Below, piece by piece: positions 6,129 to 62,780 of a stretch of DNA of 64,000 nucleotides (within the stretch, counting starts at the first letter, position 1; the number at the start of each line of letters is the position of its first letter). Source of the stretch: Patescibacteria group bacterium (GTDB lineage Bacteria; Patescibacteriota; Patescibacteriia; 2-12-FULL-60-25); the NCBI GenBank assembly GCA_038061235.1, contig JBBTZS010000002.1:4672-68671 (forward strand), read 5' to 3'. A program made the position numbers and the translations under genes. A model generated the notes under the pieces. The model saw only the letters and a list, made by a program, of their open reading frames with translations. It had not been told where the DNA came from and did not search any database.

Positions 6129-8009
6129 TTAAACCAAAACCTCCTCCTGCGCGACCCCATGACGCGGCGCCGTCTTTAAAATAAGTCGAGCGAATCTCAA
6201 TTCATCATAGGAATAGGAGTCTCCAAGCTGGGCGCGAACCGGCGCAAGAAAATCGTTTCCGGTTTTGCGGAAGGCTTCCGCGATACGCGTCAAGCGTTCT
6301 TCGGAGGAAAAGGTGACATGCGACGCGTCCAGCGCTCGCCCTTGTTCAAGGGCTTTTTCCAAGTGCTGAATGACCGTTCCGACGCCGATATTCCGTATCT
6401 CTGCAATACGCTCCGGCGTTTCTTTCGCGTCGAACAAACGAACCGTCTCAAGCATCGTGCTCGTGAGAGCGCGCCTTGTAGACGCCCTGCTTCGAACGAC
6501 GGTTTGCGCCACATCCTGCTCCCCGATCCCCCGTTCAGACGCGTAGGAGCGGATCACCTGCAAAAACGGTTCTCCAAACTGCGCAAGCTTGCCTTTGCCC
6601 ACGCCAAACACCTGCGCCAACCGCTCCGTATGTTGCGGAAATGAGCGAGCCATCTCCTGCAACGTCTTATCGCCAAAAATCATGTACGGCGGAACGCGCG
6701 CGTCTTCGGCGAGACGGCGGCGTAAGGCGCGAAGTTGTTCGAAAAGATCGCGGTCGAATTCCGTAGGCGCTTCGGCATCCGATTCTGTCGCCGCCGGAGG
6801 CACGCAAATATCACAGGCTCCGCAATTCGCCTCAGGCCAAGCCTCGCCAAAATAATTCAACAGAAAGGCGCGGCGACACGTGCGTAACTCGCCGTACTTC
6901 ATCATTTCCTGGAGCTGGCGACGCGTTCGTTGTCGCTCCTCCGGATCCTCCATCCCGCGAATAAAATATTCATGCTTGACGCGATCGCCTGTCGAAAAAA
7001 ACAAAAGACAATCGCTTGGCAAACCGTCTCGGCCCGCGCGACCCGTCTCTTGATAATAGCCCTCGGCCGACTTGGGCAAATCCATATGCACGATCAATCG
7101 CACGTCCGGCTTATCAATCCCCATGCCAAACGCGATCGTCGCCGTAATGACCGGAGTCTGATCGCGGATAAACCGCTCCTGAACGCGCGTCCGCTCGGCA
7201 GACGTAAGGCCCGCATGATACGCCGCGGCCTTTACTCCGTTCGCACGCAAGTCAGCCGCAATTTTTTCCGTGGATTTGCGTGAGAAGCAATAAATGATGG
7301 CGGATGACTCGGGTCGGCGTTTTAACTCCGCAAGCAATCGGTCAAACGAACGTTTTTTAGGCAAGACACGATACGTAAGATTTGGCCGATTAAAACTCGA
7401 CCTAAAGATGCGACCCTCCTCCAATTTTAAGTGGCTTACGATATCGTCGCGCACGCGCGCATTGGCCGTTGCCGTCAACGCCATGACCGGAATGCCCGGA
7501 AAATACTGGTGGAGAAGCATATTCCGATAGTCGGGACGAAAATCATGACCCCACTCGGAGATACAATGCGCTTCATCAACGGCAATGAGGCTGATCGAAA
7601 GCGTCCGGAGAAAATGGCGCACTTCGGGCTTTGTGAGCCGCTCGGGAGCAAGATACAAAAGCTTGATTCGCCCTTGCGCCGCCTTTGCCTCGACCTGTGT
7701 CATCTCGCTCGGAGATAACGTACTATTCCAAAACGCTGCCGGAATCCCGTTCGCATTGAGCGCATCCACTTGATCTTTCATCAACGCGACCAATGGCGAG
7801 ACGACCACCGTTAAACCGGAAAAAGCGAGGGCCGGTATTTGATAGCAAAGAGATTTACCGCCGCCGGTCGGCATTAAAACCAACGCATTCTTTCCCAAAA
7901 GGCAATGTTCGATGATTTCCTCCTGAAACGGACGGAACGACTCGTACCCAAAATGTTTTTTTAGCAGTTCAAGGATCATACGCTTTCTTCTACCACGTTC
8001 CATAAACAA
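6129..8009 (-). CDS. recQ: ATP-dependent DNA helicase RecQ
   Basis: 626-aa ORF: FGYESFRPFQ, Walker A PTGGGKSLCYQ, DEAH box (VDEAHC), a four-Cys cluster (zinc-finger-like), C-terminal HRDC-like region. Alternative start at 7979. Confidence 0.92.
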   Translation of the reverse strand: MFMERGRRKRMILELLKKHFGYESFRPFQEEIIEHCLLGKNALVLMPTGGGKSLCYQIPALAFSGLTVVVSPLVALMKDQVDALNANGIPAAFWNSTLSPSEMTQVEAKAAQGRIKLLYLAPERLTKPEVRHFLRTLSISLIAVDEAHCISEWGHDFRPDYRNMLLHQYFPGIPVMALTATANARVRDDIVSHLKLEEGRIFRSSFNRPNLTYRVLPKKRSFDRLLAELKRRPESSAIIYCFSRKSTEKIAADLRANGVKAAAYHAGLTSAERTRVQERFIRDQTPVITATIAFGMGIDKPDVRLIVHMDLPKSAEGYYQETGRAGRDGLPSDCLLFFSTGDRVKHEYFIRGMEDPEERQRTRRQLQEMMKYGELRTCRRAFLLNYFGEAWPEANCGACDICVPPAATESDAEAPTEFDRDLFEQLRALRRRLAEDARVPPYMIFGDKTLQEMARSFPQHTERLAQVFGVGKGKLAQFGEPFLQVIRSYASERGIGEQDVAQTVVRSRASTRRALTSTMLETVRLFDAKETPERIAEIRNIGVGTVIQHLEKALEQGRALDASHVTFSSEERLTRIAEAFRKTGNDFLAPVRAQLGDSYSYDELRFARLILKTAPRHGVAQEEVLV

Positions 8010-8115: not shown

Positions 8116-8191
8116 GGTGGCCATGGTGAAACGGTTATCACAGCAGGTTGTGGTCCTGTTATTACGGGTTCGATTCCCGTTGGCCACCCCA
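8116..8191 (+). tRNA. tRNA-His(GTG) with encoded G-1 and CCA
   Basis: Hand-folded cloverleaf: G-1 + GTGGCCA/TGGCCAC acceptor, D stem GTGA/TCAC, anticodon loop TTGTGGT, T arm ACGGG-TTCGATT-CCCGT, C73, CCA. Confidence 0.9.
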
Positions 8192-8200
8192 TCGAGAATA

Positions 8201-8226
8201 AACCTCCTCAACACGGGAGGTTTTCT
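8201..8226 (+). terminator. Rho-independent terminator after tRNA-His
   Basis: AACCTCC-loop-GGAGGTT hairpin followed by a T-rich tract. Confidence 0.6.
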
Positions 8227-8568
8227 CGTACATAGGGGCTTTTTTGAGAGGTTCTAACCGTTTTATATCCATTTTGATGCTTTCCAGTGCGTTGGAAATG
8301 GGAACAATCCATTCTGCTTTCAGTTCGCGGCGCATGGCGAGAAGTTTTTCCATGCTCTCTACTGAGATGTTTTTTTCAATGCCCATTGCGATCCAGTCGA
8401 AGCCTACAAACGGCATGTGAAAGCCGTGATGGAAGACCCGGACTACGCATCTGCGTTTTACGCGCAGGATGTGACGCTATCTTATCTGTTCGGATATCTT
8501 GAGCTTGGCGAGTATCCGATAAGAACCGAGGAAATTAGCCAATCTGGCGTTAATGAGTAACTGCGACT

Positions 8569-8835
8569 ATGCTAGAGACTATGCAATACGATTTCATTGA
8601 AAGGTTCAAAGCGATGAGCGACGCTGAACTCGTGGAGGCTTTCAACAAGGAGGTCGGTAATCCGGGATGGGTTAGCGCGAGAGCAGAGTATTTAACCGTA
8701 TTACATCGCGAGTTCGATGAGCGTGGATTTGATTACTCGGTCATCGGTAACGAGGGCGGCCTATCTCTCTCACGAGAAGTGGGACTGGAGGGAAAGAAAA
8801 TCATAATAGTTGATAAAGCAGACCAGACGTTGTAA
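8569..8835 (+). CDS. Hypothetical protein in the low-GC islet
   Basis: 88-aa ORF followed by a hairpin/T-run at about 8873-8920. No family recognised. Confidence 0.5.
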   Translation: MLETMQYDFIERFKAMSDAELVEAFNKEVGNPGWVSARAEYLTVLHREFDERGFDYSVIGNEGGLSLSREVGLEGKKIIIVDKADQTL

Positions 8836-8938
8836 GGTACAGCTAATCATGACCTACCACTTCAGGAGAATATAACCCGCACAGCCGTTCACCTTTCGTG
8901 AGCGGTCTTTGCGGGTTTTTGATTTGTTCGATTCTCCT

Positions 8939-9015
8939 GCCCTCGTAGCTCAACTGGATAGAGCAAGGCGTTTCTACCGCCAAGGCTGTAGGTTCAAATC
9001 CTATCGAGGGCGCCA
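8939..9015 (+). tRNA. tRNA-Arg(TCT)
   Basis: Acceptor GCCCTCG/CGAGGGC, D arm GCTC-AACTGGATA-GAGC, anticodon loop TTTCTAC, T arm GTAGG-TTCAAAT-CCTAT, G73, CCA. A27:A43 mismatch. Confidence 0.8.
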
Positions 9016-9016
9016 C

Positions 9017-9091
9017 GCTCCCGTCGTCCAAAGGTTAGGACAGCAGTCCTATGAACTGCCCATCAAGGTTCGATTCCTTGCGGGAGTACCA
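9017..9091 (+). tRNA. tRNA with non-canonical anticodon loop CCUAUGA (nominal anticodon UAU, C at position 33)
   Basis: Otherwise regular 75-nt cloverleaf: GCTCCCG/CGGGAGT acceptor, D arm GTCC-AAAGGTTA-GGAC, anticodon stem GCAGT/ACTGC, T arm CAAGG-TTCGATT-CCTTG, A73, CCA. Starts 1 nt after the preceding tRNA. Confidence 0.6.
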
Positions 9092-16757: not shown

Positions 16758-17531
16758 TTATTTCTTGGTCCAGCTCTCAAACGCGCGCAGCACCTCGAGC
16801 GGTATGGCGAAGACCACGGTGTTGGATTGGTCGCTCGAAATGTCATTGATCGAATTCAACGTGCGCAGATGCAGGGCGCCCGGCGAGCTCACGAGAATTT
16901 CTGCGGCCTTACGTAGGTTTTCAGCTGCGGCAACCTCACCTTCCGAGTTGATAATCACGGCACGACGCTCGCGCTCGGCTTCGGCCTGTTTGGCGATCGT
17001 ACGCTTCATGTCTTCCGGAAGCTGAATATCCTTTAACTCCACATTCAGGATCTCAAGTCCCCAATTAGCCGCATCCTGTTCGATAATCCCTTTGATACGG
17101 CTCGACGCCTGATCGCGCTGCGAGAGAAGCTCGTCAAGCGCGAGCTGACCCACGACGTTACGCATCGTTGTCTGCGCAAGCTGCGAAACGGCGTGCCAGA
17201 AGTTCTCGACCTCGAGTACGGCTTTGCCGGCATCCGAAACGCGATAATAGATCACGGCGTTGATGCGGCACGAGACGTTATCCTTGGTAATCGCCTCCTG
17301 ATCCGGCACATCCACGGCCTTGGTACGGATGTCGATTTTCGACATGGACTGGATCACCGGAATCACGATGCGCCAACCCGGTTCCACGAGCTTGTGAAAA
17401 CGGCCGAACATGAATTTCACGCCGCGTTGATACTGGTTTACTTGGCGAATCGTCGTAAGAAATGCGGCTATCAGAACCCAAAATAAAATAGTAAAAAGGA
17501 TGTTCATATGGACAGAGGCTAGACCGAACAC
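16758..17531 (-). CDS. SPFH/Band 7 (stomatin/slipin-like) membrane protein
   Basis: 257-aa ORF with N-terminal TM, an SPFH core (QYQRGVKFMFGRF..IDIRT..) and a C-terminal AEAERERRA coiled segment. Confidence 0.85.
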   Translation of the reverse strand: MFGLASVHMNILFTILFWVLIAAFLTTIRQVNQYQRGVKFMFGRFHKLVEPGWRIVIPVIQSMSKIDIRTKAVDVPDQEAITKDNVSCRINAVIYYRVSDAGKAVLEVENFWHAVSQLAQTTMRNVVGQLALDELLSQRDQASSRIKGIIEQDAANWGLEILNVELKDIQLPEDMKRTIAKQAEAERERRAVIINSEGEVAAAENLRKAAEILVSSPGALHLRTLNSINDISSDQSNTVVFAIPLEVLRAFESWTKK

Positions 17532-17570
17532 GAAAAAGCGTCAATGGCGGCGCCACGTGGAGACGTAGTA

Positions 17571-17597
17571 AAAAGCCGCAGCTTTGCTGCGGCTTTT
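17571..17597. terminator. Bidirectional hairpin terminator
   Basis: AAGCCGCAGC-TTT-GCTGCGGCTT flanked by A and T runs. Immediately 3' of the tRNA 3' half on the minus strand. Confidence 0.7.
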
Positions 17598-17600
17598 ACG

Positions 17601-17820
17601 TGGTGCCCCCGGTTGGATTTGAACCAACATTGCACGGCTTACCTGCCCGCCATGCCGACAAAAAAACCACGTTGTTACGTAGTTTTTTCATGGTGCCTCG
17701 AGTTGGAGTCGAACCAACATCTCACGGCTTAGAAGTCCGGTGCTCTATCCGGTTGAGCTATCGAGGCATGGCTTTGGCAGGCGGGGAAGTCCAGCGTTCT
17801 ATCCATTGAACTACAGGGGC
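17601..17820 (-). tRNA. Interrupted tRNA-Arg-like gene: 5' half 17786-17820 and 3' half 17601-17641, separated by a 144-nt insert
   Basis: 5' half: GCCCCTG-TA-GTTC-AATGGATA-GAAC-G-CTGGA-CTTC. 3' half: TAA-GCCGT-GCAAT-GTTGG-TTCAAAT-CCAAC-CGGGGGC-A-CCA. The acceptor strands pair 7/7 (one G:U). Joined loop would read CTTCTAA. Confidence 0.6.
17691..17767 (-). tRNA. tRNA-Arg(TCT), nested inside the interrupted tRNA gene
   Basis: GCCTCGA/TCGAGGC acceptor, D arm GCTC-AACCGGATA-GAGC, loop CTTCTAA, T arm GTTGG-TTCGACT-CCAAC, A73, CCA. Weak anticodon stem (CCGGA/GCCGT, 3 Watson-Crick pairs). Followed by its own hairpin/T-run (17662-17688). Confidence 0.75.
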
Positions 17821-17867
17821 AAGGATTTCGGACGGAGAATAGCCGAAAAATGTCTTTTTGTCGAGCC

Positions 17868-18212
17868 TTATCTCTCATCCCCTTCCCCTCCCAGCTTGCC
17901 GCGATCCATTCTGGAAAACAACTTTTCAATATTTGCCGTCGCCACGTCGTCCAACGACAGGCCGAGCTCGGTCGCGAGTTGCGCCACATACCACAACACA
18001 TCGCCGAGTTCTTTTTTGACGGCGTCGCGCGTCGCGTCGTCCATAACGCCCCCCTTGTCGCGCAATACTTTCTTAATCTTTTCCGCGACCTCGCCCGCCT
18101 CTCCGGCAAGTCCGAGCGTCGGGTAGATAAAATTCGATCCGACCTCCGGATACTTGGCCGTTTTCCGCGACTCTCTTTGATATTCATTCATTTCCATATC
18201 GTTATTCGTCAT
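17868..18212 (-). CDS. mazG: MazG-like nucleotide pyrophosphohydrolase
   Basis: 114-aa ORF: LGLAGEAGEVAEKIKK..ELGDVLWYVAQLA is the MazG EXXE motif arrangement. Confidence 0.8.
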   Translation of the reverse strand: MTNNDMEMNEYQRESRKTAKYPEVGSNFIYPTLGLAGEAGEVAEKIKKVLRDKGGVMDDATRDAVKKELGDVLWYVAQLATELGLSLDDVATANIEKLFSRMDRGKLGGEGDER

Positions 18213-18215
18213 TCG

Positions 18216-19148
18216 TTATTCAATCGTCCTCCCATGGAACGCTTTATGCACGTCCTTCAATTGTTGATTCGTTACATGCGTATAAATCTGCGTCGTGGTG
18301 ATGGATGAGTGCCCGAGCATCGCCTGAACGCTTCGTAGGTCGGCCCCGTTCATGAGCAAATCCGTCGCGAACGAATGACGAAGCGTATGCGGCGAAACGT
18401 TTTTTGGAATGCCCGCCATTACCGCATAGTATTTCACCAGTCGCTCGATCGATCTCGGCGTGATCGGGCCGACCTCCTTCCCCGATGCGGAGGACGGCGC
18501 GGCGCGGTCGTGTCGCACGAACAGGTGCGGCGACTCATCCCGTCTCATCTCCACATACCGCTTCAACGCATGCTTTGCCTGGTGCGACAAAAACGCGACG
18601 CGCGTCTTATCTCCCTTCCCACGCACCGTGAACTCGTCACGCTCGAGATTGATCTGATCTCGTTTCAGTCCGGCGAGTTCCGAGACGCGCATACCGGTCG
18701 AAAAAAAGAGTTCGAGAATCGCCTTGTCGCGCGCCTTCACGATCGGCGCAAGATCCGCCTTCTCCGGCGCTTCGAGCAATCGCTGCAAGTCCGCTCCGTC
18801 GAGAAACGCGACGTCGCGCGACCCCTGCTTCGCAAGCTCGATCTTTTCCGGCGCCATCGTTTTCACATCGCGCTTGGCAAGAAATTTGAGAAACGACCGA
18901 AGTGCGATTAAGTGATAATTCTGCGTCGATTTTTTCAACGTACCCTCTCCGCGACTTTCAAGACGATTCAAATACAAACGATACCGATGCACCATGTCCG
19001 ACGTGATGTCGTCCGGTGCCGGATCTTCCGCCCATTCGATAAAACGCCGGAGATAGAACTCGTAATTACGGATCGTAAGCGAAGAGCGGCCTTTCTCCAC
19101 TTCAAGATACTCGAGAAACGTGCGGAGATGCGAGGAAAGTGTTGCCAT
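18216..19148 (-). CDS. Tyrosine recombinase XerC/XerD
   Basis: 310-aa ORF: N-terminal SAM-like domain, catalytic R..HxxR..Y signature (TLRHSFATDLL, LGHSSITTTQIYTHV). Confidence 0.88.
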   Translation of the reverse strand: MATLSSHLRTFLEYLEVEKGRSSLTIRNYEFYLRRFIEWAEDPAPDDITSDMVHRYRLYLNRLESRGEGTLKKSTQNYHLIALRSFLKFLAKRDVKTMAPEKIELAKQGSRDVAFLDGADLQRLLEAPEKADLAPIVKARDKAILELFFSTGMRVSELAGLKRDQINLERDEFTVRGKGDKTRVAFLSHQAKHALKRYVEMRRDESPHLFVRHDRAAPSSASGKEVGPITPRSIERLVKYYAVMAGIPKNVSPHTLRHSFATDLLMNGADLRSVQAMLGHSSITTTQIYTHVTNQQLKDVHKAFHGRTIE

Positions 19149-33587: not shown

Positions 33588-35270
33588 ATGCCCTCCCCAA
33601 CGCCTCAAACTGTCCCCGACTTCGTTGCCCGTATTCGCACGACGTTTGGAATTGACGAGATTGAGAATCTACCGGAGGACGTGACGACCCTTCGCTACGT
33701 CCTATACGCCCGCAAGAGCACCGATAACTCGGCCAAGCAGGAACGATCCATCGGCGACCAAATCCACGAATGTAAGACATTGGCAGAGCGTGCAGGGCTT
33801 CACGTCGTGGCCGTTCTCCACGAAGAACACTCGGCCAAGCTCTCCGGCAAGAGGGACGTGTTTCATGCCATGCTGGCAAGCCTGTCCAGCGGCGAATATG
33901 ACGCCATCCTGACATGGGCTCCTGACCGTCTTGCCCGCAACATGAAAGACGCGGGGGAGGTGCTCGACCTACTCGATAAAAACGACATCAAGGACATCAA
34001 GTTCGCCAATGGGTACTACTTCCAAAATGACGGCGCGGGCAAGATGATGCTCGGCATCGCCTTCGTGCAGGCTAAACAGTTCATAGACACCCACTCCCAG
34101 AACATCAAACGCGGCATCAGTCGCATCACGGCCGAGGGCAAGTGCTACGACCGTCCCAAACACGGCTACTACAAAGACAAGGACAAGTACCTCCGGCCTG
34201 ACGGGGAGAACTGGAACCTCATCAAAAAGGCCTTCGAGATGCGCCTGTCACGCGAACCGAAGTACGCTTTGCGGGAAATCGGGACATGGTTACAGGGGCA
34301 GGGCTACCCGCTCAAAACCAAGCACCCAGAACGTCACTCAATCGTCGTTGACGATAAGTTCTTGTCTGACCTATTCCGTGATCCTTTCTATGCCGGAGCC
34401 CTCATCTTCGGCAAGCGGATCGTAGACCTGACAAACAAGTACAACTTCCAACCTATCATCACGCCTGACGAGTTCGACATGCTCGCCAAAGAAGATGGCA
34501 TCAATAAGAAGTTCACGTTGTCCGAGGTCATCAAGCCCAAGGGCTCGGTCAAAGCTGACCTCATGCGTGGGATGGTCATTTGTGGCGGTTGCAATCGTCC
34601 CCGTTCCGCTGGCATCACCCCAAAGAAAACCAAAACGGGTACGACAAACTATTTTCTATACCGTTGCGACACGGTGGGGTGCAAATACAAAGGCAAATCC
34701 ATCCGCGCAAAGGAGGTGCTGGCCGCCGCCTACGCCTTCCTCGACAGCCACCCGATGAACTTTGAGAAGGGCTACGCGGCGTACAAGCGCGATATGGAGC
34801 ATCAAATCGGCGTGCGCGACGCGGAACTCCTATCAAAGCTCAAATCCCTTCATAAACAACACGAGGCGGCCAAGGAACGGGTGGACGAGGCCAAGGCATC
34901 GCTCAAACAATATGCGGACGACGCGGTGCTCGTAAAAGAGTTCAAGAAAGACTTGACGCAACAACTCGCAAAACAGCACGAACTCGAAAACGAAATACGC
35001 AAACTACAGAAAAAACGAGAGGACGGAAAAGAGGCGATCCAAAGCTACGAACAGTTCATCGAACTTTTCGGAAATCTGGCTCAACACATCAAAAAAATAA
35101 CCAACATGGACGACTTGGATTACATCATGAAAAAAGTCTTCATGAACTTTGTTATCGAGGGCAAGAAAGTCGCTCAAATAACACAAAACTCCCTGTTTAG
35201 GGAGTTGTGCGGTACACCGGAATCGGTGATGGTAGCCCCAAGGGGAGTCGAACCCCTCTTAACGGCTTGA
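33588..35270 (+). CDS. Large serine recombinase
   Basis: Resolvase catalytic domain (YARKSTD..SIGDQ, DRLARN), recombinase domain, a Cys cluster (CGGCN..C..C) and a C-terminal coiled coil. The last 41 nt overlap tRNA-Glu on the other strand. Confidence 0.88.
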   Translation: MPSPTPQTVPDFVARIRTTFGIDEIENLPEDVTTLRYVLYARKSTDNSAKQERSIGDQIHECKTLAERAGLHVVAVLHEEHSAKLSGKRDVFHAMLASLSSGEYDAILTWAPDRLARNMKDAGEVLDLLDKNDIKDIKFANGYYFQNDGAGKMMLGIAFVQAKQFIDTHSQNIKRGISRITAEGKCYDRPKHGYYKDKDKYLRPDGENWNLIKKAFEMRLSREPKYALREIGTWLQGQGYPLKTKHPERHSIVVDDKFLSDLFRDPFYAGALIFGKRIVDLTNKYNFQPIITPDEFDMLAKEDGINKKFTLSEVIKPKGSVKADLMRGMVICGGCNRPRSAGITPKKTKTGTTNYFLYRCDTVGCKYKGKSIRAKEVLAAAYAFLDSHPMNFEKGYAAYKRDMEHQIGVRDAELLSKLKSLHKQHEAAKERVDEAKASLKQYADDAVLVKEFKKDLTQQLAKQHELENEIRKLQKKREDGKEAIQSYEQFIELFGNLAQHIKKITNMDDLDYIMKKVFMNFVIEGKKVAQITQNSLFRELCGTPESVMVAPRGVEPLLTA

Positions 35271-35304
35271 AAAGCCGCTGTCCTAACCGATAGACGATGG
35301 GGCC
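35230..35304 (-). tRNA. tRNA-Glu(TTC)
   Basis: GGCCCCA/TGGGGCT acceptor (G1:U72), D arm GTCT-ATCGGTTA-GGAC, loop TTTTCAA, T arm AGGGG-TTCGACT-CCCCT, A73, CCA. Confidence 0.85.
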
Positions 35305-57270: not shown

Positions 57271-57714
57271 GTGATGGATGTCTTTACGAGACAGATCGTT
57301 GGGTGGCATGTGTCCACGCATCACTCGGTCGAGTTGGTTCAAGAGGCTCTACGGATGGCGCTTGGCAAGCGTTCAAAAGCTCCGGTGATCTTCCATTCGG
57401 ATCATGGAAGCGAATACATCAGTGCGGAGTATGTGTCGAAACTGAAGGCGCACGACATCAAGCCGTCCAACAGCGCCAAGGGCAAGCCCTGGCAAAATGC
57501 GTTCGTGGAATCCTTCAACTATCGCTTCAAGGAAGAGCTGGGTGATCCGAATCGCTTTGAGGCATTCGACATGCTCTTCCAAGAGCTCTGCTCCAAGTTC
57601 ACCGAGTACAACGCCGGGAGAATCCACAGTGCGCTCAAGATGTCTCCTGACGCGTTCCACGAAATGAAGACGCGGGAACTGGAGCGATTCACAAACGTGT
57701 CAAAAGCTGCCTAA
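57271..57714 (+). pseudogene. IS3-family transposase remnant (C-terminal part of the DDE/rve domain)
   Basis: VMDVFTRQIVGWHVS..IFHSDHGSEY..AKGKPWQNAFVESFN..EL is an rve core. An in-frame stop lies at 57235-57237, and there is no orfA, N-terminal part or inverted repeats. Confidence 0.8.
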
Positions 57715-58602: not shown

Positions 58603-58983
58603 TCGGATCCAATCGTTATACGTGCAAGGCATACTGTACATTCACTAGCTTCACGAGCCATGACAACGCACGAGAACTTTCTTATGTGCGCCGTCCGGTT
58701 TTTACCCGGATGGCTGAAGCATTGGACGATTAGTATGGCTCGGCTAAAGACCTCTCGGTCTGTACACCTACCACCTATCAACCTCCTGTTCTCGGAGGGT
58801 CCTATGACGAAGGTTCATCTTGAGGACGGCTTCACGCTTAGATGCTTTCAGCGTTTATCCGTGCCGAACGTAGCTACCCGGCGGTGCTCCTGGTGGAACA
58901 GCCGGTGCACTAGAGGTTCGTTGTTCCCGGTCCTCTCGTACTAAGGAACAGCCCTCTCAACCTTCCGCGCGCGCAGTAGACAG

Positions 58984-59079
<96 letters not shown>

Positions 59080-59643
59080 CGATGGGCCGACATCGAGGTG
59101 CCAAACCTGGTCGTCGATGTGGACTCTTGGACCAGATCAGCCTGTTATCCCCGGAGTAGCTTTTATCCGTTGAGCTTCCGCCGTCCGATATCGTACGGTC
59201 GGATCACTATGTCCTACTTTCGTATCTGCTCGACTTGTTGGTCTTGCAGTGAAGCCAGCTTTTCCCATTGCGGAACCAGCGCGATTTCCATCCGCGCCTA
59301 GCTGACCTTTGTGAACGCCTCCGTTACATTTTAGGAGGCAACCGCCCCAGTTAAACTACCCACCAGCTACTGTTTCACGATCCGGATTCACGGACCGTGA
59401 TGAGAATACCGTCAGGGCAAGGGTGGTGTCTCATTGGCGCCCGAAGGCTCCCACCTACGCTGAACATGCCAAGCCGGTACCCAATAACAAGTTGTAGTAA
59501 AGCTTCACGGGGTCTTTTCGTCTGACTGCGCGTACAGGGCATCTTCACCCCACTTGCAATTTCGCCGAGTCCCATGTTGAGACAGTCGCTCTCTCGTTAT
59601 GCCATTCGTGCGGGACGGAACTCACCCGTCAAGGAATTTCGCT

Positions 59644-60390
59644 CTTTCTGTTACAAGTCCTTCGACTTGATGCGATCATCTCTGTCGCATTCTGCATGTC
59701 GCCATGCAGATCGGACTATATCTTCTCCGAAATCATTTCGGAGTCTCGGCGTGTAGTCTCTGAGGATTCCAGAAAACGCGATGGAGATTTTCGATTCATA
59801 CTCTGAATGATGTTTGCGATACGGTGAAGACCTTCTGAAATCTTATGCTCGCCTCGATCCATACATCGAAGGATCGAAACGAACTTCTCGAAGTCTTCAC
59901 GTTTTGCGGTGCGCAACGGATATTTCTGAAAGAAAGGAATAATCTTTTCTTGCAGATCCTGTCGCGATCTCACGCAGTATCGAAGCAATGATTCCTTATG
60001 ATTGTCATGACGGCGGTTGATATAGATCTGACCGCACTCAAAGAAATGTTTAATCACTTTGAGAGCTGATCGGCTTTTTTCACCTTGTGTCACGACAAAT
60101 TCCGGAAATACTTGCCACCCAGAACCGGTCGTTATGTTGCGGATCAAGCTGACTGAGAAACACCCTTCTCCGTCAACGAATCCACAAATCCAGTTCGCTG
60201 TTCCTAGTCTTTCCTGCTGATTGTCTGCACTTGAGACTTTTTTACTGGGCATATTCTATGGCCGAATATTACCTTAGTAGCTCAAGATACTCCAGATGTT
60301 CCAGCATTTAGCCAGATTTTCTTCTACATCTCCCGTGGCAACGGAAGTTCGAAGGAGGACTTTCACCTCACTAAGGCAACGAATTATTTC
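59644..60390 (-). mobile_element. Group I intron (747 nt) at E. coli 23S position 1931
   Basis: Exons rejoin to ..CGTCCTAAGGT|AGCGAAATTCC.. 5' exon ends in U. Intron ends in G. Intron nt 14-20 (GCCTTAG) pair with exon CTAAGGT (P1 with U:G at the splice site). Contains a LAGLIDADG ORF. Confidence 0.85.
59716..60252 (-). CDS. LAGLIDADG homing endonuclease (single-motif, 178 aa)
   Basis: NWICGFVDGEGCFSVSL motif. The ORF lies wholly inside the intron, and its sequence is AT-richer than the surrounding rRNA. Confidence 0.88.
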   Translation of the reverse strand: MPSKKVSSADNQQERLGTANWICGFVDGEGCFSVSLIRNITTGSGWQVFPEFVVTQGEKSRSALKVIKHFFECGQIYINRRHDNHKESLLRYCVRSRQDLQEKIIPFFQKYPLRTAKREDFEKFVSILRCMDRGEHKISEGLHRIANIIQSMNRKSPSRFLESSETTRRDSEMISEKI

Positions 60391-61229
60391 ACCTTAGGAC
60401 GATTATAGTTATCGCCGGCGTTCATCAGCGCTTCGGCTCAAGGCTGCCTCCGCCTGAGGCGGAATGACCTCTCCCCTTAACGTTCTGACACTGGCCAGGC
60501 ATCACTTCCTATACGTCACCTTGCGGTTTAGCAGGAAGCTGTGTTTTTGGTAAACAGTCGGAAAGCGTCTTTAGCTGCGGCCGGCTTGCGCCGGCAGGCC
60601 TTATCCCTAAGTTACGGCCGTTGTATTGCCGAGTTCCTAAACATGGGTTCTCTCGTACACCTGAGCACACTTATGCCTACCCACCTGTGTCGGTTTACGG
60701 TACGGTTTCTATAGAGTTAGCCCTAGAAGATTTTCTTGGCACCCCAGTCCCGACCCTCGCTCCGCTTTCGCGAAACTCGCGCTCACCCCGAGGCTTATGA
60801 CCGGCGGATTTGCCTACCGGTCACCCCTGAGTGCCCGAAGATTCATTCCGGGAATCTCGGTCAGTTGAAGGATGCGTCCCTCCATTGGAACTCTACAGAA
60901 GTGCAGGAATATTAACCTGCTGTCCATCGACTACGCCTTTCGGCCTCGCCTTAGGACCGACTAACCCAGGGACGATTCGCGTTGCCCTGGAAACCTTGGG
61001 TTTACGGTGGACAGGATTTTCACCTGTCTTTTTGCTACTTATGCCGACATTCTCTCTTCCGAACGCTCCACGGTGCCTCACGGCTTCCGCTTCGGCGCAG
61101 ATCGGAATGCTCCCTTACCAAAGTATGAATCCTGAGATTCATACCGTCCGCGACTTCGGTATCGTACTTGAGCCCCGGTAAGTTTTCGGCGCCGGACAGC
61201 TTGACCAGTGAGCTGTTACGCTTTCTTTA

Positions 61230-61267
<38 letters not shown>

Positions 61268-62780
61268 AGCCGTCCGACCGCCTTTCACACTTAGTACGAA
61301 TTTTGGGACCTTAGTCTGCGGTCTGGGCTGTTTCCCTCTTGTCCTATGGAGCTTAGCCCCCACGGACTGACTGCTGGGAACACCGAACGGCATTCGGAGT
61401 TTGGTTGGGAGCTGTAAGCTTGCGCCCCAGCTCTCATTCAGTGCTCTACCTCCGTTCGGCTATTAATCAGCGCTAGACCAAAATCTATTTCAGGGAGAAC
61501 CAGCTATTACCCGGCTCGATTGGAATTTCACCCCTAGCCACAACTCATCCCCGAGTGTTGCACGGCTCGTGGGTTCGGACCTCCATCCCGCTTTCGCGGG
61601 ACTTCATCCTGGTCATGGCTAGCTCGCCGGGTTTCGGGTTGTGCATACGCCACAAATTCGCCCTATTCAGGCTCGCTTTCACTACGGCTTCGTCCCCGCA
61701 GGGACTTAACCAAGCGACGTATGGCACACTCGTCGGCTCATTCTTCAATAGGAACGGTGTGACGGACTTGCGCCCGCTCCACCTCCTTGTAAGCGTACGG
61801 TTTCAGATACTATTTCATCGCCCTCCCGGGCTGCTTTTCAACGTTCCATCACTGTACTGGTTCACTATCGGTCAGGAAGAGTATTTAGCCTTGGCACATC
61901 GTCGTGCCTGCTTCCTACGAGGTTTCTCGGGCCTCGTAGTACTTTGGATCTGGACAAAAGGGATGGGTGCCGTTTCGCCTACCGGACTATCACCGTCTTT
62001 GGTTCCGCTTTCCAGCGGTATTCAACTACAGTCCCGTGCCTTTTTGCCTTTCAGAGGAAAGGCGTGTCCGTCCCTACAACCCACAATATGTCGATAGCCT
62101 CTGCTCGCCCCGTTGTCCGCGGTATTACTTGCGTAAGACTCGGTGCAACGGTTAAACATATGTGTTTAGGCTGTTCCCGTTTCGCTCGCCACTACTCAGG
62201 GAATCAAGCAGACTCTGTTGTCACGCCGTGACCATTGCTGATCGCGGGTGACAACAGAATCTGCGTTTCAATTTGTTTCTTTTCCTCTGGCTACTGAGAT
62301 GTTTCACTTCACCAGGTTCCCATCCACGACCTATGTATTCAGTCGTTGGATCATCGTGCTTCACACGATGGGGTTTCCCCATTCGGACATCTCCGGATCA
62401 TAGGTTGCTTGCCACCTCCCCGAAGCTTATCGCAGGCTGCCACGTCCTTCATCGGCTCTTCGCTGCCAAGTCATCCACCGTACGCCCTTACGTGCTTCCG
62501 CCATCCGGAAACCGATCAAAGATCGGACCCGGACGGACAATAAGTGTTCAGATGCGTTGTCATTAATTGACTCGCTTGAAATTGCTTGCCATGCACCGTA
62601 ATGGTGCATGGCGCGTGTGTGTACATGCCTTGCACGTATAACAATTGGATACTGTTATACATTCAAGATCTTCAGTTTTGAAGATTCGATCCGGGTCTAC
62701 CGGCGAATGCCGGTCCGAGCCGGACACGGAACGGATTCGAGTGAGTTCGAACCCGATCTGTGTCCACCTCATGCTCTTGA

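Follow-up and report, generated by a model that had tools for sequence, protein, structure and literature searches.

A complete tRNA-Arg(UCU) gene lies inside another tRNA-Arg(UCU) gene in the window analysed here, a 64-kb stretch of DNA from a groundwater Patescibacteria bacterium of the candidate phyla radiation (CPR), whose relatives carry the names Uhrbacteria or Moranbacteria. The 144-nt insert that separates the two halves of the outer gene looks like a very small mobile element of a previously undescribed kind. From sequence comparison, we consider it probable that a small, non-autonomous, palindrome-ended DNA element inserted at TTC^TA of the resident tRNA-Arg(UCU) gene (^ marks a junction throughout) and brought a replacement tRNA with it. 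More tentatively, this insert may belong to a CPR family of hairpin-ended elements of 32-144 nt that sit at TTC^TA, some of which carry only a tRNA-Arg(UCU) and both knock out and replace the host gene. Loci from other assemblies are cited by L numbers.

A tRNA gene split by a tRNA gene

On the minus strand, two halves of a normal tRNA-Arg(UCU) (17820-17786 and 17641-17601) are separated by 144 nt (17785-17642), and the split falls between anticodon positions 35 and 36 (CTTC^TAAG). The resident gene is complete to the base, having been split without bases lost or duplicated, and its D stem (4/4) and T stem (5/5) pair fully. All seven acceptor pairs form as well, one of them as T6.G67, so the original prediction made from this DNA was right about the pairing and slightly overstated it in calling the acceptor strands fully complementary. 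ARAGORN reads the joined halves as a 76-nt tRNA-Arg(tct) and, in the intron mode that had been suggested as a check, picks up the acceptor, D and T arms of the outer tRNA across the insert. Neither junction of the split gene yields a tRNA with ARAGORN, so the host tRNA is disrupted and not rebuilt. ARAGORN, Rfam and RNAfold otherwise bear out the split tRNA, the inner tRNA-Arg(TCT) and the inverted repeats as first described, coordinates included.

The inner tRNA, which we presume to be the working gene, fills 77 of the insert's 144 nt, and its opening three nucleotides are also the final three of the left end (LE). Between the tRNA and the right end (RE) lies a hairpin with a T-run that a strict terminator scan of 17300-18100 does not list. 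The 144 nt contain no open reading frame (ORF), and the two junctions show neither a direct repeat or common core nor microhomology. Within 17300-18100 there is a single promoter-like site (17864-17836), which leaves a leader of 15 nt before the outer 5′ half; the same scan finds none belonging to the outer 3′ half.

RNAfold predicts a nested cloverleaf for 17598-17822(-), in which the anticodon stem of the outer tRNA and the acceptor stem of the inner one are connected by a long helix (-91.5 kcal/mol, z = -5.05, 0/200 shuffles equally good). At the junction of the insert, this helix contains a C.U mismatch or, in an alternative register, an 8x3 internal loop; a bulge-helix-bulge (3-nt bulges with 4 bp of helix between them) is absent from the predicted junctions. 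Rfam reports only tRNA at the gathering threshold between 17520 and 17900, with no intron family match up to E = 1. A group I intron or another Rfam family was rejected as the identity of the insert, given the lack of a match and a length of 144 nt vs the ~200 nt or more needed.

Nine assemblies of the same species, from different samples and assemblers, carry the nested structure (the window, L001, L002 and L052-L057). Their identical structure leads us to reject an assembly artefact. Strain differences within 520 nt comprise 17793 T/C, 17642 G/A, 17593 G/A, homopolymer indels and a one-base deletion in L002. The first is position 28 of the outer tRNA, where U.G alternates with C-G, the second is the last base of the right arm, and the L002 deletion falls in the inner tRNA (17700).

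Related genomes do not conserve the interruption. Using the Band_7/slipin gene as an anchor, we obtained syntenic loci from five related lineages (L066, L067-L070, L071, L072 and L073), with the gene order Xer-tRNA-Band_7 in L066 and L072 and Xer-MazG-tRNA-Band_7 in the others. Each has one uninterrupted tRNA-Arg(TCT), with the shared promoter block (CTCGACAAAA...) on one side and the shared Band_7 promoter on the other; the CTCGACAAAA block precedes the intact tRNA-Arg in L067, L071 and L073. The spacer measures 192-224 nt in these relatives vs 361 nt in the window, and from L071 and L073 the window differs by 144 nt. The outer 5′ half agrees with the syntenic intact gene of L071 at 33/36 aligned positions, and the outer 3′ half with that of L073 at 38/41 (92-93% for the two halves); the latter match takes in the unusual GCAAT variable loop, and the terminators are alike as well. 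This match to syntenic intact genes identifies the outer gene as the resident one and the insert as lineage-specific; as far as sequence can tell, the two halves are the remains of that resident gene. The closest MazG homologues (80-84% identical) were discarded as empty sites, as their order is Thy1-Tmk-MazG-GatB with no tRNA. We also dropped the idea of a hypervariable 'tRNA cassette' locus, since Band_7 evolves slowly and 91-96% identity still spans fairly distant genomes.

A second nested gene and a unit without cargo

A metagenome scan for two tRNA-Arg anticodon arms spaced below tandem distance returned one locus, L065. Longer contigs of the same organism, another CPR genome (L194 and L196), show a full second nested tRNA-Arg(UCU). 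Its sense strand reads GCCACTG TA GTTC AATGGATA ^ CCTGCCCGCCCTTGCCAGT (complete tRNA-Arg(TCT)) ATGGCGATGGCAGGCGGG ^ GAAC T GCGGA ... CGGGGGCA, so that an insert of 109 nt, including arms of 19 and 18 nt, lies between positions 21 and 22 of a near-identical tRNA-Arg. The inner and outer copies agree at 71/72 positions; the sole difference, A4 in the outer 5′ piece, creates an A4.G69 acceptor mismatch that the inner copy lacks. The predicted RNA fold is likewise nested, with an 8x4 internal loop at the junction and no bulge-helix-bulge.

The ends of the two inserts correspond when one of them is flipped. The antisense strand of L194 reads GTTC^CCCGCCTGCCATCGCCAT...GGGCGGGCAGG^TATC and the window CTTC^CCCGCCTGCCAAAGCCAT...GGCGGGCAGG^TAAG. 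With the window on its tRNA sense strand (CTTC^CCCGCCTGCCAAAGCCATGCC...GGCATGGCGGGCAGG^TAAG) set against L194 antisense (GTTC^CCCGCCTGCCATCGCCATTGCC...GGCAAGGGCGGGCAGG^TATC), the left ends agree at 19/22 positions and the right ends are identical over their terminal 10 nt; that is, the window LE matches the reverse complement of the right arm of L194 (19/22). A same-strand comparison gives only 16/22 for the left ends, and the termini differ. The terminal GGCGGGCAGG of RE recurs identically in L194/L196, and GCGGGCAGG recurs identically in L059.

L059, from another CPR genome, is one of the MazG-homologue loci discarded above and fortuitously has a unit with no cargo. In its MazG-GatB spacer we find TTCG^CCCGCCTGCAACGCTGTAGCATTGCGGGCAGG^TACT, a hairpin of 32 nt, and at the same spot the syntenic L064 reads ..TATAATTCGTACTTTG.. 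/ ..GTATAATTCGTACTTTG.., a precise 32-nt presence/absence difference. The hairpin lies within four TTCGTA repeats that include a TATAAT box (L059 3430-3500, L064 1130-1170), and transcription of gatB is predicted to start at about the insertion point.

All three units share the asymmetric ends CCCGCCTGC...GCGGGCAGG, a left flank TTC(G) and a right flank TA. The end motifs, CCCGCCTGC(C)A..GC and GC..GCGGGCAGG in the window, L194/L196 and L059, show that the hairpin-forming ends are conserved between copies. No target-site duplication is present at CTTC^...^TAAG, GTTC^...^TATC or TTCG^...^TACT. In the window, TTC^TA is U33-U34-C35^U36-A37 of the UCU anticodon loop, and on the opposite strand it corresponds to the junction of D-loop and D-stem (GGATA^GAAC). 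In both nested cases the cargo tRNA is co-oriented with the split host gene.

To gauge the flanks we used 368 chance LE..RE pairs in viral contigs as a null: the right flank is TA in 11 of them, TTC falls within 5 nt of the left end in 10, and a single pair combines the two. Four scans of viral contigs, with the leader or with the LE..RE pair, gave chance matches only and no tRNA between the ends. One viral contig (L287, IMGVR_UViG_3300025896_001943, ~6963-6992) holds a 30-nt hairpin, TTCG^CCGCCTGCCAGCGTTTCGAGCGCGGGCAGG^TA, with CPR-like ends and flanks; its arrangement TTCG^CCGCCTGCC..GCGGGCAGG^TA is ambiguous, at about chance expectation (one among 368). A MazG-family gene stands just upstream of each of the three element sites (L194 5082-5768 (-), L059 3001-3330 and window 17868-18197), an adjacency that comes at least partly from fetching loci through MazG and that we do not count as evidence.

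The inner tRNA differs from the outer one more than it does from genes elsewhere in the CPR. It is 79% identical to the outer tRNA-Arg of the window, and its nearest relatives are non-syntenic genes of other CPR lineages, L007 (92%, with 40/41 in the 3′ half) and L024 (90%). The inner hairpin and T-run resemble the natural trailer of the tRNA-Arg in L036. Read in this way, the cargo is a whole tRNA transcription unit minus its promoter, and its origin is apparently foreign or old-paralogous. L024 has a single tRNA-Arg at the syntenic Xer-MazG site, and the leader of this gene is the inner part of LE, CCAAAGCCAT; that tRNA, with its arm-like leader, may descend from an element-borne copy. In L024 (CAYIQM010000056.1, positions 1-130) the leader CCAAAGCCAT directly follows the -10 box, and the contig ends 14 nt after the tRNA CCA, as would happen at a repeat.

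Scanning the GTDB species representatives with the pattern of the 3′ half gave 49 loci, of which none had two matches and could be a second nested case. Among them are 12 CPR loci, each with one intact tRNA-Arg(TCT) that has the CCGGA-CTTCTAA-GCCGT arm or a close variant. The odd anticodon stem (C27.U43, A31.G39) is thus common to 12 other CPR tRNA-Arg(UCU) genes. With these two positions mismatched, the arm has only three Watson-Crick pairs and an effectively 9-nt loop; its carriers are the inner (17767-17691) and outer (17820-17601) genes of the window and L007, L012, L024-L028, L036, L038, L043-L045 and L048. The weak stem had first been taken to mark the inner and outer genes as paralogues, a reading that fails because it is a clade trait and the two are only 79% identical.

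A candidate palindromic element and competing explanations

In the model we favour, the element has the ends 5′-CCCGCCTGC...GCGGGCAGG-3′ and would enter at the pentanucleotide TTC^TA. Its cargo would be nothing other than a promoterless tRNA-Arg(UCU) unit, made up of a short leader, the tRNA with CCA, and the hairpin and T-run. Transcription would begin at the resident promoter (17864-17836), cross the orphaned 5′ half, continue into the cargo tRNA and end for the most part at the internal T-run, after which RNase P and 3′ trimming would free the inner tRNA to take over decoding. The outer halves would stay a disrupted gene that is not re-joined, and precise excision would restore the resident gene, GGACTTC^TAAGCCGTGCAAT. 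An element that prefers TTCTA would hit tRNA-Arg(UCU), since the UCU anticodon spells TTCTA, and insertion there may be tolerated only when a co-oriented tRNA-Arg(UCU) is supplied and driven by the host promoter. Survivorship of this kind would make cargo and target the same tRNA, bring their orientations into agreement and leave the element hard to lose. Mobilization would occur in trans. The absence of a target duplication fits insertion of the HUH/single-strand type or the recombinase type and not DDE transposition; by analogy, HUH/REP-type single-strand transposition would fit best with a clean, duplication-free insertion, hairpin ends and a fixed short target.

Several observations weigh against this proposal. 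Only three independent units turned up, a single one in each genome region that was examined; the arms occur once in the window, with no other match there beyond chance and no further copy elsewhere in ~227 kb of CPR loci, which falls short of demonstrating a repeated family. Pfam detects no transposase, HUH enzyme or integrase of the element's own among the ORFs of the window. Relative to the polarity of the ends, the cargo is sense in the window and antisense in L194, which does not suit a simple scheme of one element with one cargo. The near-identity of the inner and outer tRNAs in L194 also fits a local duplication or capture of the host gene; with a difference of 21% between the two in the window, gene conversion and local capture are both possible. 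As an ordinary leader in L024, CCAAAGCCAT suggests that part of the arm may be a native tRNA flank. The outer halves in the window are undecayed, with all stems and conserved nucleotides intact and a sole single-nucleotide polymorphism (SNP) that changes U.G to C-G. Lastly, another tRNA-Arg(TCT) in the genome, at 8939-9015, weakens the argument from essentiality.

Three explanations had been offered in the original prediction, namely a module bounded by terminal inverted repeats that carries its own replacement tRNA, recombination between paralogues, and a processed split tRNA. The module gains from the five intact loci, the second nested case and the cargo-less copy; had the halves been unrelated fragments, related genomes should have lacked an intact ancestor, and five of them have an intact gene. 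Recombination between paralogues leaves the conserved ends and flanks unaccounted for, and it could still be the source of the cargo. In a broader form, it becomes a local rearrangement without any mobile element, by template switching or illegitimate recombination, with the arms arising from fold-back copying of the leader. We regard this as unlikely, even though the homology of inner and outer genes extends beyond the tRNA (leaders ~11/15 by eye, a repeat D1 that reaches past the CCA, and a repeat D3 that is the shared trailer hairpin), the inner and outer copies of L194 agree at all but one position, the inner part of LE is a natural leader in L024, and template switches are favoured by the inverted repeats in which tRNA genes abound. 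It does not explain why the same asymmetric ends, CCCGCCTGC and GCGGGCAGG, and the same flanks recur in three genomes, nor why a 32-nt tRNA-free copy has a precise empty site at an unrelated locus; moreover, the inner gene of the window is closer to other lineages than to the outer gene, and its junctions lack microhomology. That same L059 hairpin begins 3-4 nt after the TATAAT box, at about the transcription start, and the LE-like leader of L024 stands directly behind a -10 box. Leader-trailer stems around stable RNAs are common, and the arms could in principle be a native processing or stability stem of CPR transcripts (for example of RNase III type), with nesting as a by-product of duplication. 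This seems improbable to us: a native stem would not be expected to come and go as a precise indel between close relatives (L059/L064) or to interrupt two tRNA genes while leaving the outer sequence complete to the base, and the flanks TTC and TA are host sequence in all three cases. A retro-copy of the primary transcript was rejected, with the right arm lying beyond the T-run and the ends conserved in the tRNA-free copy.

Anticodon loops are classic att sites, and an Xer-type tyrosine recombinase is encoded ~400 nt upstream. The insert might then be what is left of a prophage or island, a larger integrative element with a strategy like tRNA-dependent lysogeny that entered the anticodon loop through a tyrosine recombinase and was later deleted down to a tRNA and two att arms; some phages are known to disrupt a tRNA and to carry another that complements the loss (PMC10865867). 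We hold this to be very improbable, as the junctions lack a direct-repeat common core and independent deletions would not leave three genomes with units of 32, 109 and 144 nt between the same ends. Xer and its position are also conserved in insert-free relatives and in distant CPR genomes, and no Xer gene lies beside the L059 site (in L194 the contig does not reach far enough upstream to tell). A classical island integration site, or involvement of Xer, was rejected in its own right, the Xer-tRNA-Arg order being ancestral and independent of the insert. Least credible of all is a genuinely processed interrupted tRNA, in which the inner tRNA would be cut out and the outer halves, bridged by the 14-bp helix, trimmed and ligated, or used as a two-piece tRNA, to make a second functional tRNA-Arg(UCU). 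The predicted fold does give a perfect outer cloverleaf with a continuous helix to the inner tRNA, in L194 as in the window, the nested layout occurs in two lineages, and the outer halves of the window carry no disabling change, their only SNP keeping the pairing. Against it, however, the bulge-helix-bulge is absent from both folds, the split lies at 35/36 in the window vs 21/22 in L194, and TTC^TA falls on opposite strands relative to the tRNA, which is a signature at the level of DNA and not of RNA. The outer copy of L194 has the A4.G69 mismatch, a terminator-like hairpin and T-run come between the two halves, and no promoter-like site belongs to the 3′ half. The gene is uninterrupted in five syntenic relatives, no splicing endonuclease or RtcB-type ligase is encoded within the window, and literature searches found no bacterial case.

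Known systems and the surroundings of the locus

Palindromic mini-elements, such as REP/REPIN sequences (mobilized by RAYT), IS200/IS605-derived palindrome-associated elements and the Rickettsia palindromic elements, are tens to ~150 nt long, form hairpins and encode no protein. They vary in presence between relatives and can sit in genes, and those of HUH type use a short fixed target without duplication. The insert resembles them in size, hairpin ends, absence of a protein gene and precise empty sites. It differs in that such families have many copies per genome and the insert has one in the window, and in that each end of IS200/IS605 folds its own hairpin whereas the two ends of the insert pair with each other. 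To our knowledge, no palindromic mini-element carries a tRNA or any other functional gene in its loop. Islands and prophages integrated in tRNA genes rely on a tyrosine integrase, rebuild the tRNA from a 3′ copy and place direct repeats around kilobases of DNA. Like them, the insert has a tRNA target, a partial 3′ copy downstream of a complete tRNA and a tyrosine recombinase nearby. Unlike them, it also has a 5′ half upstream, the halves are just 144 nt apart, and a direct-repeat core is absent.

In the tRNA-dependent lysogeny of actinobacteriophages, integration destroys an essential host tRNA gene that is not rebuilt (Guerrero-Bustamante & Hatfull 2024, PMC10865867). By analogy, the logic of the nested tRNA would be this system shrunk to ~0.1 kb: the insert disrupts a host tRNA, and the anticodon of the inner tRNA, TCT, is that of the host gene, also in L194. 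Those phages are whole temperate phages with their own tyrosine integrase and an attP/attB core of ~10 bp (PMC10865867), in contrast to an insert of 109-144 nt with inverted-repeat ends, no protein gene and no core, whose replacement tRNA sits inside the replaced gene and apparently uses its promoter. Archaeal split tRNAs and tRNA introns (Nanoarchaeum, Caldivirga) have bulge-helix-bulge junctions that are cut by a splicing endonuclease, with RtcB joining (PMC4090602; PMC10714607). They share with the insert an interruption in or near the anticodon loop and complementary flanks that could hold the halves together, and some of the introns are mobile (PMC4090602; PMC10714607). The insert, unlike these, lacks a bulge-helix-bulge, occurs in a bacterium, holds a complete tRNA with a terminator and has uninterrupted relatives. 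Group I introns occur in the anticodon loops of bacterial tRNAs (bioRxiv 10.1101/2020.01.27.920355), and they resemble the insert in that position and in leaving the exon sequence intact; their catalytic core requires ~200 nt or more, whereas the insert has no Rfam intron match and its 144 nt are filled by a tRNA. Literature searches returned no description of nested or split tRNAs in CPR or other bacteria, nor of palindromic elements that carry tRNAs.

If the proposed element is real, no known 'addictive' gene-replacement element would be smaller, and it would be the first palindromic mini-element to carry a functional RNA gene. It would represent a new mode of persistence for selfish DNA in a minimal genome, by supplying a spare copy of the small essential gene that it destroys. 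Introns splice out and tRNA-gene integrases rebuild their target, and such an element would do neither. It would also offer a mechanism for swapping tRNA genes for foreign versions in the CPR, where these genes vary much between close relatives. For annotation, the locus would caution that tRNA halves around a tRNA are not necessarily split genes. The motif CCCGCCTGC...GCGGGCAGG at TTC^TA would provide a searchable signature, and the locus would show in a natural setting how bacterial RNase P and 3′ processing deal with a tRNA embedded in a tRNA-like fold.

Coordinates of the features described here are collected in the table. The Xer gene lies ~400 nt upstream of the nested locus and is probably not part of the element, because its order beside the tRNA-Arg is kept in relatives without the insert and in distant CPR genomes. 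Pfam detects no RAYT, TnpA, EndA splicing endonuclease or RtcB-type ligase among the ORFs of the window. Its other recombinase genes are an rve fragment (57271-57714) and a large serine recombinase (33573-35270), and nothing ties either to the element.

Features of the nested tRNA-Arg locus and its neighbours, in window coordinates
Feature	Positions	Strand	Sequence or basis
Outer (resident) tRNA-Arg(UCU), 5′ half, positions 1-35	17786..17820	-	GCCCCTG TA GTTC AATGGATA GAAC G CTGGA CTTC
Outer (resident) tRNA-Arg(UCU), 3′ half, positions 36-76	17601..17641	-	TAA GCCGT GCAAT GTTGG TTCAAAT CCAAC CGGGGGC A CCA
144-nt insert, candidate mobile element	17642..17785	-	CCCGCCTGCC...GGCGGGCAGG, CTTC^TAAG
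Left end/arm (LE)	17765..17785	-	CCCG-CCTGCC-AAA-GCCATGCC; inverted-repeat part 17781-17765
Inner tRNA-Arg(UCU), complete, CCA encoded	17691..17767	-	ARAGORN (TCT); Rfam tRNA 61.8 bits
Terminator-like A-run / hairpin / T-run inside the insert	17657..17690	-	CTACGT-AACA-ACGTGG; inverted-repeat listing and RNAfold
Right end/arm (RE)	17642..17656	-	GGCATGGC-G-GGCAGG; single copy in the window
Promoter-like site upstream of the outer 5′ half	17836..17864	-	TCGACA-17 nt-TATTCT
Terminator-like hairpin of the resident gene	17569..17597	-	AAAAGCCGCAGC-AAA-GCTGCGGCTTTTT; inverted-repeat listing; resembles trailers in L073 and L043
Band_7/slipin gene, downstream neighbour, synteny anchor	16758..17507	-	
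MazG-family pyrophosphohydrolase, 109 aa, upstream neighbour	17868..18197	-	
Xer-type tyrosine recombinase	18216..19148	-	Pfam; NCBIfam XerD/XerC/XerA-like, only the XerA model above cut-off

Downstream of the resident terminator, at 17553-17569 (-), stands a further hairpin, ACTACGTCTCCACGTGG, which is 82% identical to the terminator hairpin of the insert (17683-17667). It is missing from L071 and L073 and may be the trace of an earlier event at this locus. The cluster at 8117-9091 (+) comprises a tRNA-His(GTG), a quite different tRNA-Arg(TCT) (71-74% identical to the other two) and a tRNA-Ile(TAT). The GC content here, 0.47, is the lowest of the window, and the cluster may have a foreign origin; its tRNA-Arg (8939-9015) has TTCTA in the anticodon loop, yet is uninterrupted.

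The rve fragment (IS3-type integrase core, 147 aa, (+) strand) lies just upstream of the 5S/23S rRNA genes. The 23S rRNA match, 58711-62501 (-), spans 3791 nt vs a model of 2925 nt, which implies an insertion of ~870 nt. The ORF 59716-60252 (-) within it encodes a homing endonuclease of the LAGLIDADG family (Pfam 3.9e-22); intron-type insertions like this one have been reported in CPR rRNA genes. The large serine recombinase (565 aa, (+) strand) adjoins a LOOT RNA (RF03000, 85.6 bits) at 33149-33271 (-). The 3′ end of its ORF overlaps a tRNA-Glu(TTC) at 35230-35304 (-) by ~40 nt, and the arrangement may be another element integrated at a tRNA gene.

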